Shown here piece by piece: positions 29,177 through 32,329 of a stretch of DNA of 64,000 bases. Every line of letters starts with the position of its first letter. The stretch's first letter is position 1. This stretch comes from a virus: the IMG/VR virus record IMGVR_UViG_3300021430_000595; one strand, written 5' to 3'. The position numbers and the translations under genes are program-made. Below the pieces are notes generated by a model that did not search any database, had not been told where the DNA came from, and saw only the letters and a program-made list of their open reading frames with translations.

Positions 29177-29341
29177 AAAAAACCCGAAAATCTTTTTTAA
29201 GAAGTTCGGGTTTTTCTATTAGTAGATTATTAATCCTTACAATTTGACTAACTCCGAACTCGGGAAACATAAATATATACCTCTCCCATTACCACTTAGT
29301 GGGTTGTTTGACGGTTGTAATATGTATACCAAGTTCATCAT
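29177..29341 (-). promoter_or_regulatory. Attenuator-like leader: 34-codon ORF 29341..29237, antiterminator, terminator
   Basis: AGTTCGGAGTT can pair with terminator 5' arm AACCCGAACT. Confidence 0.55.
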
Positions 29342-29407
29342 TTTTTTAATAACTATCACAAAGATAAGAAAAGTTTTCAAAAAATCAAATATTTTTAGAA
29401 ATTTTTT

Positions 29408-29650
29408 TTAAAATAAGTCATCACACCATATTGGTGTCTTCTCACCAACATACGCACCTGAAATATTAAAATCAAAGTATTCAACCGCTTCGGTCATACT
29501 CATTCCTTGTTCCATTAGGATATTGATACACTTCTCAACTGAATAAATTAATCTTGTTGATTTACTATCAATACCAATAACAGCATCATCAAATCCGTCT
29601 GCCTTTAAGATTTCTTCATCTTGATACTGTTCTAAAATTTGTTCTAACAT
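29408..29650 (-). CDS. Phage hypothetical protein
   Basis: DGFDDAVIG...FNISGAYVGEKTP. Confidence 0.7.
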   Translation of the reverse strand: MLEQILEQYQDEEILKADGFDDAVIGIDSKSTRLIYSVEKCINILMEQGMSMTEAVEYFDFNISGAYVGEKTPIWCDDLF

Positions 29651-29665
29651 ATTGGTTTTTTTATT

Positions 29666-29740
29666 TGGTAGCCCCGACGAGAATCGAACTCGCGTTTTTA
29701 GGTTGAAAACCTAACGTCCTAACCGTTAGACGACGGGGCC
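29666..29740 (-). tRNA. tRNA-Glu(TTC)
   Basis: Cloverleaf with CCA. Confidence 0.88.
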
Positions 29741-29745
29741 AAGTG

Positions 29746-29831
29746 CGGAGAGTGAGGGATTCGAACCCCCGTTACCTTTCGATAAAACGGTTTTCAAGAC
29801 CGCCGCGTTCAACCAGCTCTGCCAACTCTCC
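29746..29831 (-). tRNA. tRNA-Ser(TGA)
   Basis: Cloverleaf, long variable arm. Confidence 0.92.
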
Positions 29832-30118
29832 AATATTCCCTACCTGAGATTACGATAAGTAGATTTTAACGGGTTTCTCTCACTGTTTCGAGAACCATAT
29901 CCCTCCCACTTGTTTGATACTCCATATGAGTACCTCATAGAGCGAGTCTTTTTCATTAGTGTCTTACCACATAAAAACCTGTCAACCCAATACGTCGGCG
30001 GTGCTGGATATTGCGACCGTTTACCCGAATCGATACCTCATTAAGGTCGAGGATTTTTTTACCACCATCACTTTTTTAAAGAATGTGACCAATCTTCCTG
30101 AGTATCTCTTCCTCATTG

Positions 30119-30192
30119 CGGGATATACGGGATTCGAACCCGTGACCTCCACCGTGACAGGGTGGCATTGTGACCAACTCTACTAACATCCC
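30119..30192 (-). tRNA. tRNA-Asp(GTC)
   Basis: Cloverleaf, G73. Confidence 0.88.
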
Positions 30193-30200
30193 AAAGTTTG

Positions 30201-30274
30201 AGCCTCCTGTCGGATTCGAACCAACGACCTACGCATTACAAGTGCGTCGCTCTAACCAGCTGAGCTAAGGAGGC
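30201..30274 (-). tRNA. tRNA-Thr(TGT)
   Basis: Cloverleaf. Confidence 0.92.
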
Positions 30275-30371
30275 TTCTATTCGAGTTAGAGTAGTCACGG
30301 CCACCTCTAATCCTTCTAACTCTTGACATAATCTCGGCACAACGTGGCTCGACCCTGATTATATCCATTTG

Positions 30372-30444
30372 TTGCGAGGGAGGGAATCGAACCCCCGACC
30401 TTTGGGTTATGAGCCCAACGAGCTACCGCTGCTACCACCTCGCT
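30372..30444 (-). tRNA. Initiator tRNA-fMet(CAT)
   Basis: 1:72 mismatch; GGG/CCC anticodon stem. Confidence 0.88.
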
Positions 30445-30516
30445 ATATCAATATTCCAAAGAACAATCAAAATATAAGAAAGAAATCTCACTTTTCAAAA
30501 TGTTTTTTTATAAATG

Positions 30517-30591
30517 TTGCGGGACCGGGACTCGAACCCGGAACTTCAGCTTATGAGACTGACGAGATAACCATTTTCTACACATCCCGCA
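30517..30591 (-). tRNA. tRNA-Met(CAT)
   Basis: Cloverleaf. Confidence 0.82.
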
Positions 30592-30595
30592 ATGT

Positions 30596-30672
30596 TGGTT
30601 GGAATAATAGGACTCGAACCTATAACCTTTCGCGTATCAGACGAATGCTCTAACCAATTGAGCTATATTCCA
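30596..30672 (-). tRNA. tRNA-Ile(GAT)
   Basis: Cloverleaf with CCA. Confidence 0.9.
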
Positions 30673-30675
30673 ATA

Positions 30676-30751
30676 TGGGGTGATTAACCAGAATCGAACT
30701 GGTATCAATAGAACCACAATCTATTGTGTTAGCCGTTACACCATAACCACC
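30676..30751 (-). tRNA. tRNA-His(GTG)
   Basis: G-1:C73, CCA. Confidence 0.9.
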
Positions 30752-30757
30752 ATATTG

Positions 30758-30827
30758 AGGTCAATGTCGGAATCGAACCAACTCCGTTAGTTTTGCAGAC
30801 TAACCGGCCTCCATGACCAAACTGACC
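30758..30827 (-). tRNA. tRNA-Cys(GCA)
   Basis: Loop CT-GCA-AA, U73. Confidence 0.85.
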
Positions 30828-30833
30828 ATTTTG

Positions 30834-30907
30834 TACTCTCGGAGAGATTCGAACTCCCAACCCTTTCATCCGTAGTGAAATGTTCTAATCCGTTGAACTA
30901 CGAGAGC
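30834..30907 (-). tRNA. tRNA-Arg(ACG)
   Basis: Cloverleaf. Confidence 0.9.
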
Positions 30908-30914
30908 ATTGTTT

Positions 30915-31346
30915 TTATTTCAACCTTTCATCCCATTCTTCTTGAGTTCCCAATCTAATTGGTACAAACAATGCGAATCCATCGTCATCTTCAAAATGGT
31001 TACACTCATCTTTTCTCCAACCAAATTTATATCTCATATGGTCAAACTTATTAGTTTCCGCATTCCATCTCGCAATTGTAGTATTCCTGTGGTCACCAAT
31101 ATAAATTTGACCATGTATCAAATCTTTTTTTGGTATTGCACCGGCTTTAATTAGTTTTGGGACATAGAATTCTTTCCACTCCTTTTCATTTACTTTTGGT
31201 AATTGAGGAACGTCATGTGGTTCATTAAATTTGGGTAAATCATTTTCCCAATATTCTTTAATTCTTTTTTCCCTCTCTTCCCTAAGTCTAATTTTGTCAG
31301 CTTCAAATTTCATTTTTGCCGCCTCAAATGTTTCTTGGTTATTCAT
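30915..31346 (-). CDS. Hypothetical protein
   Basis: 143-aa ORF in tRNA array. Confidence 0.65.
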   Translation of the reverse strand: MNNQETFEAAKMKFEADKIRLREEREKRIKEYWENDLPKFNEPHDVPQLPKVNEKEWKEFYVPKLIKAGAIPKKDLIHGQIYIGDHRNTTIARWNAETNKFDHMRYKFGWRKDECNHFEDDDGFALFVPIRLGTQEEWDERLK

Positions 31347-31367
31347 GGTTATAAAATTTTAAGTTAG

Positions 31368-31438
31368 CACGAGTGGAGAGATTCGAACTCCCATCAAAGG
31401 TTTTGGAGACCCGTATGCTACCATTGCACCACACTCGT
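31368..31438 (-). tRNA. tRNA-Trp(CCA)
   Basis: Loop CT-CCA-AA, G73. Confidence 0.88.
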
Positions 31439-31506
31439 GTATTTTGATGGTTTTATCATTCATTAAAGGTAAAAATACTAATTAATGAATGATTTACACA
31501 TCATTG

Positions 31507-31578
31507 TAGTTCCTGTCGGATTCGAACCAACGACCCTCTGCATGTAAGGCAGATGCTCTCCCACTGAGCTAAGGAACT
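31507..31578 (-). tRNA. tRNA-Val(TAC)
   Basis: Cloverleaf. Confidence 0.9.
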
Positions 31579-31583
31579 ATGTG

Positions 31584-31657
31584 CACCGAATGGGGGATTC
31601 GAACCCCGACCCTCTGCGTGACAGGCAGATATACTCAACCATTATACGACATCCGGT
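31584..31657 (-). tRNA. tRNA-Asp(GTC), second copy
   Basis: TCTGC-CTGTCAC-GCAGA. Confidence 0.8.
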
Positions 31658-31667
31658 GTGTTTGTTG

Positions 31668-31741
31668 TGACCCCGCCGAGACTCGAACTCGGGACTCCCT
31701 CATTAAAAGTGAGGTGCTCTAGCCAACTGAGCTACGAGGTC
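31668..31741 (-). tRNA. tRNA-Lys(TTT)
   Basis: Cloverleaf. Confidence 0.92.
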
Positions 31742-31747
31742 AATTTT

Positions 31748-31823
31748 TGGTGGTGAGGGAGGGATTCGAACCCCCGACGCTCGGCTCTTCAGGCCGACGC
31801 TCTACCATCTGAGCTACCTCACC
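31748..31823 (-). tRNA. tRNA-Phe(GAA)
   Basis: Cloverleaf with CCA. Confidence 0.92.
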
Positions 31824-31855
31824 AAGTAAAACCAATATGTCAAAGAACATCTTTG

Positions 31856-31926
31856 TGGAATATTTGGGATTCGAACCCATACCTCCCACCGTCTAGCGGT
31901 TGCACATCCTTATGTGCTTTTATCCC
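31856..31926 (-). tRNA. Atypical tRNA with Ala identity (G3.U70) and non-canonical anticodon arm
   Basis: ACCG-CTAGA-CGGT arm; recognisable D and T arms. Confidence 0.5.
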
Positions 31927-31929
31927 TTG

Positions 31930-31999
31930 TGGACCACGTGGGAATCGAACCCAAACATTCTCTTTGCAAAAGAGACGACCTGCCTTCGGTATCGCGCCC
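31930..31999 (-). tRNA. tRNA-Ala(TGC) with irregular acceptor stem
   Basis: TCTCT-TTTGCAA-AGAGA; G3.U70. Confidence 0.7.
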
Positions 32000-32005
32000 A
32001 TAAAC

Positions 32006-32159
32006 AAAAAAACCTCGGGAGGTTATCCCGAGGTCTTCATGTATTTCGTTTCAATTAAAACAATTACACCATCCCTCGGGACACACGAATATCAGCCACC
32101 TCTGCCCATTTCGAACAGGTTGTAAATGACATTGTGATAATATGTGTAAATCGTTTCAT
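32006..32159 (-). promoter_or_regulatory. Attenuator-like leader of the tRNA operon: 31-codon ORF 32159..32064, antiterminator, terminator
   Basis: TCCCGAGG in the leader competes with terminator ACCTCGGGA/TCCCGAGGT plus T tract. Confidence 0.65.
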
Positions 32160-32329
32160 TGAATTTTTCTCCTTTTTTTAAATCTTGTACAAAGGTAAAG
32201 ATAAATATTCGAAAAAACAAGAAAAGTCAAAAAAAAATTTAAAAAAAGTTTTTACCGTATATACAGTAATCATAGTTGCCGGGATATTTATGTATAACCA
32301 AATAACAAATTAAAACACAAATTACAACT

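Follow-up and report, generated by a model that had tools for sequence, protein, structure and literature searches.

How does a phage control the transcription of a long array of tRNA genes? The question is raised by a 64,000-nucleotide (nt) stretch of virus DNA (IMG/VR record IMGVR_UViG_3300021430_000595; hereafter, the window), whose minus strand carries 27 tRNAs called by ARAGORN between ~32.2 and 22.8 kb, with homing-endonuclease genes, small open reading frames (ORFs), and introns scattered among them. As judged from its bipartite −33/−7 promoters ending in TAnnTTTG and from its IMG/VR relatives, the window is part of a large phage with Bacteroidota-type hosts. Two blocks of these tRNA genes each lie behind a leader composed of a promoter, a short ORF, and an intrinsic terminator. 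An earlier reading of this DNA (the original prediction) had proposed that both leaders are attenuators, in which a ribosome covering the antiterminator favors termination and tRNA transcription rises when translation stalls. We find that each leader is a codon panel for the tRNAs of its own block, which is the key new result. We estimate at about 0.78 the probability that the two units act as ribosome-mediated attenuators of transcription, of the same type as those of trp, his, and thr, and gate the tRNA arrays, with the leader peptide serving as the codon panel. The anatomy of the units, the match of codons to tRNAs, the alternative RNA pairings, and the recurrence of the layout in other phages are all observed here.

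Leader codons and the tRNA blocks behind them

The tRNAs of block 1 decode 30 of the 31 codons of leader 1, and all 14 tRNA species of that block are sampled. Within the opening 24 codons of leader 2, block-2 tRNAs decode 22, and 12 of 12 block-2 species are sampled; the final 10 codons of this leader hold the antiterminator, and their choice is unconstrained. The two blocks divide the genetic code almost cleanly, with only ATG (Met) decodable by both and only CGG decodable by neither. Leader 1 contains 27 codons read by block 1 only and 1 read by block 2 only, and leader 2 contains 8 and 24 such codons, respectively (Fisher test of leader versus block, P = 6.7e-9 with the entire ORFs and 7.3e-11 when only codons upstream of the antiterminators are counted). 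The leader values were matched by none of ~14,000 same-length segments of the 43 long ORFs in the window, and random draws from the codon usage of the window matched them at rates of 3, 53, 0, and 18 per 200,000. Among the 212 short ATG ORFs in the window, the two leaders alone passed.

To retrieve relatives of this phage, we used an 80-amino-acid (aa) neighboring gene and two leader motifs; a 15-nt leader 1 pattern gave many chance matches within long genes, which were discarded by eye. The relatives retain both leaders, the tRNA order, and the block partition. Leader ORF 1 is open in 12 distinct relatives, leader ORF 2 is likewise open in relatives, and the variable sites are concentrated at third codon positions (8/8/14 at the first, second, and third positions of leader 1; 6/4/14 in leader 2). 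Amino acid replacements in the leaders are often chemically nonconservative, yet they stay inside the amino acid alphabet of the block. A distant homologue of leader 2, in relative L220, stands before a second block that has gained Val and Thr tRNAs, and its panel has Val and Thr codons. A DNA search of the phage collection with positions 28900 to 32400 returned tRNA-level matches only (≤8% coverage) and no isolate with homologous leaders.

The anatomy of the leaders agrees with the original prediction: the ORFs of 31 and 34 codons, the terminators, and the antiterminator strands over the 3′ parts of the ORFs are all present on the minus strand (Table 1). The sequence AAGGAG lies upstream of leader ORF 1 at 32174 to 32169 (−). 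In leader 1 the antiterminator strand can form a 10-bp duplex with the 5′ arm of the terminator (alternative fold, −26.5 kcal/mol), and in leader 2 the strand at 29261 to 29254 can form an 8-bp pairing with the corresponding arm (−14.6 kcal/mol). Each unit has four features characteristic of a ribosome-mediated attenuator, namely, a short ORF between promoter and genes, an intrinsic terminator, an antiterminator at the end of the ORF that excludes it, and codons matched to the function of the genes downstream.

TABLE 1 Features of the two leaders and their tRNA blocks, in order of transcription (positions in the window)
Feature	Position	Strand	Description
Promoter of leader 1	32190..32221	−	CTTG, 20 nt, TACCTTTG; −33/−7 Bacteroidota type
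Leader ORF 1	32064..32159	−	31 codons plus stop; codons 1 to 25, sensor panel
Antiterminator strand of leader 1 (region 2)	32074..32083	−	Codons 26 to 29, 8 nt ahead of the stop codon
Intrinsic terminator 1	32005..32038	−	−20.1 kcal/mol; 5′ arm, 32034-32026; 3′ arm, 32020-32012; T tract, 32011-32005
Noncanonical tRNA-Ala(UGC)	31930..31999	−	First gene of block 1; G3:U70, 3-bp D stem, bulge in acceptor 3′ strand
boxA-like 17-mer	31832..31848	−	Before tRNA-Phe
Block 1 tRNAs	29666..31823	−	Phe, Lys, Asp, Val, Trp, Arg(acg), Cys, His, Ile(gat), Met, Met, Thr, Asp, Ser(tga), Glu
Promoter of leader 2	29359..29389	−	TTTG, 19 nt, TATCTTTG
Leader ORF 2	29237..29341	−	34 codons plus stop; codons 1 to 24, sensor panel
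Leader 2 regions 1 and 2	29254..29287	−	Region 1, 29287-29282; region 2, 29267-29254; 1:2 hairpin, −11.6 kcal/mol
Intrinsic terminator 2	29172..29215	−	−18.2 kcal/mol; T tract after hairpin
Promoter 3	29149..29179	−	TTTG, 19 nt, TATCTTTG; −33 element overlaps the T tract of terminator 2
boxA-like 17-mer	29125..29141	−	Before tRNA-Leu
Block 2 tRNAs	24963..29114	−	Leu(taa, intron-split), Arg(tct), Pro, Asn, Leu(tag), Tyr, Ile(tat), Met, Gly(gcc), Gly(tcc), Gln, Ser(gct)

The two leaders had also been said to share sequence in different reading frames, and we find that ~36 nt, from AATGGG to TCCCGAG and spanning regions 1 and 2, are common to both, with the frame differing between the ORFs and an equally good alignment obtained in 1 of 1,000 dinucleotide shuffles. 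The accompanying proposal that conservation acts at the level of RNA holds for the hairpin of regions 1 and 2 that both leaders share and fails elsewhere: within each leader family, what is constrained is the reading frame and which tRNA each codon calls. The shared hairpin region, being in different frames, would favor a purely RNA-level riboswitch or a T-box-like leader that binds tRNA, to which the ORF is incidental. T-box riboswitches bind one uncharged tRNA directly, without translation, and control aminoacyl-tRNA synthetase and amino acid genes. The phage leaders would resemble them in sensing the state of tRNA and in the choice between antiterminator and terminator in the leader; they differ in that they have neither a Specifier loop nor the conserved T-box motif. 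The T-box family (RF00230), whose consensus the original prediction had reported missing, gave no match even at E ≤ 10 across positions 27800 to 32400. At gathering and E-value thresholds, no leader, riboswitch, or small RNA family of Rfam was found in the leader region, where the best match was His_leader (RF00514; 22.7 bits versus a cutoff of 49, E = 1.6); matches to MicC and CopA were far under their cutoffs and were set aside. Given the third-position variation in frames that are kept open, and given that a codon-level match requires a reading frame, we regard an RNA-level device with an incidental ORF as highly improbable.

Recurrence of the layout in other phages

The 17-mer GTTCTTTGACATRTTGG stands ahead of the first canonical tRNA in each block and also heads many other phage tRNA arrays. 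The identical 17-mer is found in rrn operons of Pedobacter, Flavihumibacter, and Niabella, after the spacer tRNAs and 80 to 200 nt before the 23S gene, which is the position of the spacer boxA; by this identity with rRNA operons of the host phylum, the phage element is of the rrn boxA type. We used boxA as an anchor for a survey in which the choice of ORF was blind to tRNA content. For each site we took the strongest terminator in the 330 nt upstream of boxA and, among the ATG ORFs that end no more than 110 nt upstream of this terminator, the longest; such a unit was present at 96 of 195 boxA sites. Dereplication at <50% peptide identity and a requirement for at least 6 tRNA classes yielded 28 leader-array pairs, mostly nonhomologous. 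The window was left out of this test and analyzed by hand: the pipeline merged its two blocks and did not pick up leader 2.

Across the 28 pairs, the leader covers 94.8% of the tRNA classes of its own array, and coverage is complete in 19 pairs. Permuted leader-array pairs, by comparison, reached 75.8% (standard deviation, 2.3), and none of 100,000 permutations matched the observed value (Jaccard index, z = 9.5; codon fraction, z = 8.9). Gene windows of equal length covered 64.5% of array tRNA classes. In 17 of the 28 pairs, the end of the ORF holds an antiterminator complementary to the 5′ arm of its own terminator to a degree matched by ≤5 of 200 shuffles. Codons served by the array make up 74% of the leader upstream of the antiterminator versus 53% in the tail (P = 6e-6), and ≤20 nt separate the T tract of the terminator from boxA in 8 of the 28 units.

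A cultured example is Cellulophaga phage phi17:2 (KT962247), which has two units with identical promoters, located at ~87.5 to 87.65 kb and ~88.45 to 88.62 kb. The first contains an unannotated 22-codon ORF in which 11 consecutive codons call exactly the 7 tRNAs that follow (Pro, Glu, Gln, His, Leu(tag), Leu(taa), and Arg(acg); 7/7 species sampled), and the tail of this leader carries a copy of the 3′ arm of the terminator. The second unit overlaps the annotated hypothetical gene Phi17218_077 and samples 9 of the 10 species of its array (Ala, Lys, Ile, Gly, Met, Asp, Thr, Val, Arg(tct), Met, and Tyr). The tRNAs of phi17:2 are partitioned differently from those of the window phage, and its leaders match its own partition. 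We did not count a third small annotated ORF, before Ser, Asn, Trp, and Phe, since it lacks a clear terminator. In phi17:2 (L373 in our set; positions 2053 to 2060 and 2995 to 3002), the ATG of the first leader starts 4 nt past the −7 box, and the mRNA of that leader may be leaderless or nearly so. Elsewhere in the survey, boxA-bearing viral contigs that lacked tRNA calls were considered as 16S leaders and rejected, as Rfam shows only intron-bearing tRNAs there. Several tRNA matches of 98 to 134 nt, labeled “???” by ARAGORN, lie ~180 to 1250 nt after boxA in L137, L159, L230, and similar viral contigs; these are probably intron-bearing, forming arrays of interrupted tRNAs.

The recurrence of the codon rule bears on a rival account of the locus, according to which each unit is an independent gene that encodes a micro-protein or a small RNA and the tRNAs are transcribed from other, unrecognized phage promoters. 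Each unit is indeed a complete cassette of promoter, ORF, and terminator; the peptides are conserved among close relatives, with an invariant Ser-Lys-Trp-Ala-Glu-Val core in leader 1; and promoter 3, between terminator 2 and block 2, shows that tRNAs can have a promoter to themselves. Such genes would leave unexplained the block-specific choice of codons, the appearance of the same rule in nonhomologous leaders, the copy of the terminator 3′ arm in the last codons, and the arrays that begin 2 to 20 nt past the T tract. The pattern of replacements, which are often nonconservative chemically yet remain within the alphabet of the block, also argues against such genes. We therefore consider stand-alone genes very unlikely.

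A proposed ribosome-sensed switch

The promoter that the original prediction had placed ahead of each leader is borne out, with boxes at 32197 to 32190 and 29366 to 29359 (−), each part of a longer shared bipartite promoter. The extended motif, (C/T)TTG-N19/20-TAYCTTTG, is common to five sites, namely, the three promoters of the leader region (the third box being at 29156 to 29149 [−]) and sites at 24004 and 22747. The bare TAnnTTTG 8-mer was discarded as evidence, since it is not enriched in the window (83 occurrences versus 104 expected); the information lies in the extended bipartite motif alone. From terminator 1 to the earliest tRNAs of block 1, the minus strand is free of TAnnTTTG, and tRNA-Ala starts 6 nt past the T tract of that terminator; at least the opening part of the block therefore appears to be transcribable only through terminator 1. 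Barring unrecognized promoters, read-through of terminator 1 is the only route to this part of the block that is visible in the sequence. Further down block 1 there are only two TAnnTTTG boxes, both within a 143-aa ORF in the middle of the block.

We propose the following mechanism for both units. RNA polymerase would start at the host-type promoter and transcribe the short ORF, with a ribosome following. When all codons of the panel are decoded fast, the ribosome would reach the last codons or the stop codon and cover the antiterminator, the terminator would form, and transcription would stop before the tRNAs. When charged tRNA is scarce for any codon of the panel, the ribosome would lag, the antiterminator would capture the 5′ arm of the terminator, and the polymerase would read on. 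It would then meet boxA and, by analogy with rRNA operons, probably become resistant to termination and transcribe the long untranslated array. The outcome would be negative feedback on tRNA supply through an OR-gate to which every tRNA species of the block contributes one or a few sensor codons. The codon match, the open frames, and the recurrent layout support the ribosome-sensed attenuator of the original prediction; the parts of this scheme that we infer are that ribosomes translate the ORFs, that the switch has this sign, and that boxA acts as proposed.

The sign of the switch could in principle be the reverse, or the coupling to translation could take another route: efficient translation of the leader might license read-through, by blocking Rho or by melting the terminator. 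The direction of the switch is an inference, which leaves room for this, and the boxA that follows closely shows the importance of Rho and of termination control at these loci. The geometry argues for the opposite conclusion. The antiterminator has a median position of −19 to −7 from the end of the stop codon in the surveyed units, within the footprint of a terminating ribosome, and the terminator begins 20 to 40 nt further on, beyond the reach of that ribosome; in this classical arrangement, completed translation favors termination. Read-through licensed by efficient translation is thus unlikely in our view.

Several observations weigh against attenuation as the full account. In leader 1, the region 1 partner (32107 to 32103 [−]) gives only a weak 1:2 pairing, and two codons kept in the sensor part of leader 2, one for Val and one for Ser (TCA), have no matching tRNA in block 2. 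The antiterminator duplex is nonsignificant relative to shuffles in 11 of the 28 surveyed pairs. Relatives L004 to L007 retain leader 2, but ARAGORN calls just four tRNAs behind it. The caveat raised in the original prediction, that a second promoter at 29149 lies downstream of terminator 2, also stands: this promoter (promoter 3) is real and is an attenuator-independent input to block 2, so that attenuation is not the sole input there. A promoter motif occupies the equivalent position, between terminator and boxA, in 10 of the 28 other units, and phage-specific promoters of an unrecognized type could exist inside the blocks.

The tRNA island and its relation to known systems

Several features of the island accompany the leaders. 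ARAGORN does not call the tRNA-Ala(UGC) that opens block 1; seven distinct homologues fold as a cloverleaf with compensatory changes, and in close relatives a canonical Ala(tgc) occupies its place. The order of tRNA-Ala and then boxA in the phage echoes the order of tRNA-Ala, boxA, and 23S in rrn spacers, a resemblance in sequence order that hints at capture from a host rrn operon. A second tRNA-like element, at 31926 to 31856 (−) and also at ~3590 to 3665 in L002, has G3:U70, a 6-bp hairpin in the D position, and an “anticodon” loop of only 5 nt, and it scores under the threshold of the Rfam tRNA family (24.6 bits). Such an element could accept Ala while being incapable of decoding. Block 1 is interspersed with the 143-aa ORF and an RNA of ~280 nt, and ORFs are interspersed among the tRNAs of block 2. 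A boxA-like variant, GTTCTTTGGAATATTGA, lies at ~30465 to 30450 (−) in the middle of block 1, ahead of the tRNA-Met at 30444, and relatives have an exact boxA between Ser(tga) and Glu; the arrays seem to be rearmed internally with boxA.

The anticodon loop of tRNA-Leu(UAA), at 29114 to 28334 (−), is split by an insert of ~700 nt that has weak, below-threshold group I intron matches (29.2 and 16.9 bits) and encodes an HNH endonuclease ORF (28924 to 28490; Pfam HNH); this tRNA is uninterrupted in relatives L001 to L004. Further along the minus strand, at 17218 to 17432 and 19876 to 19998, are a group I intron that scores 68.7 bits, over the Rfam threshold, and a tRNA match of 123 nt that probably contains an insert. 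A tRNA with a CUA anticodon (amber suppressor; labeled “Pyl” by ARAGORN) lies at the far end of the island, at 22795 to 22869 (−), and a similar tRNA is found in L127, L142, L143, and L213. The phage also encodes SmpB (PF01668, E = 1.4e-47) next to an RNase H-like protein (PF04308), the two genes occupying 24033 to 24470 and 24473 to 24931 (−). SmpB is a ribosome-rescue factor, here in a genome whose tRNA control would depend on stalled ribosomes; no tmRNA was found in the window.

Multivalent leader-peptide attenuators are well known from enterobacteria, where they include thr (Thr plus Ile), ilvGMEDA (Ile/Leu/Val), his, trp, leu, and pheA, and also pheST. The phage units share with them a short ORF close to the promoter and, toward the end of that ORF, an antiterminator whose hairpin excludes that of the terminator; by analogy, the position of the ribosome would decide termination and the regulatory codons would report the supply of charged tRNA. 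Unlike the enterobacterial systems, the phage units would regulate tRNAs rather than enzymes, belong to phages of Bacteroidota, and have a boxA after the terminator. Their panels also span 12 to 19 codon classes, with one or a few codons per array tRNA, in contrast to the 1 to 3 codon types of the enterobacterial leaders. Antitermination at the boxA of rrn operons depends on NusB and NusE. The phage 17-mer is identical to the rrn element, and binding of NusB and NusE, with polymerase made resistant to termination, would be expected by analogy with rrn operons and the lambda nut sites; the phage copy differs in sitting just behind a presumably regulated terminator, at the head of a long untranslated tRNA array.

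A functional parallel is the trn operon of Anabaena sp. PCC 7120, a long tRNA array that is induced 100- to 1,000-fold when translation is impaired (PMC8421152) and whose repressor TrcR, a ribbon-helix-helix protein, binds direct repeats at the promoter (PMC10272220). Like the arrays proposed here, trn consists of accessory tRNA genes whose default state is off and which come on when translation falters; unlike them, it is under repressor control. The words attenuator, leader, and terminator are absent from the 2021 trn operon paper (PMC8421152), and full-text literature searches gave no published account of leader-peptide attenuation of tRNA genes. The closest mechanism is the multivalent leader-peptide attenuator, as in thr and ilvGMEDA, and the closest function is that of the Anabaena trn array.

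The purpose and timing of phage tRNA genes are debated, with codon-usage matching, host shut-off, and evasion of tRNA-cleaving defenses all under discussion. We tentatively suggest, with confidence well short of even, that codon-panel attenuators may be a general means of replacing tRNAs on demand: they would poll the functional tRNA pool of the infected cell one codon at a time and, upon depletion of any single species, induce exactly the block that holds the replacement, making the arrays inducible counterdefense modules and not constitutive aids to codon usage. Depletion could then be caused by host anticodon nucleases, by other tRNA-targeting defenses, or by shut-off induced by the phage itself. 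If the attenuation reading is correct, classical attenuation would extend to tRNA genes, to a many-codon OR-gate design, and to a phylum in which attenuation has been little studied, and many unannotated or “hypothetical” micro-ORFs inside phage tRNA regions would be explained. The units would also be compact parts of natural origin from which biosensors of tRNA pools could be built. Since the system is carried by cultured Cellulophaga phages, bench tests are feasible. A sensor of decoding speed for the codons served by an array would show that phage tRNA supply is regulated by demand and would give a direct experimental handle on what phage tRNAs are for.

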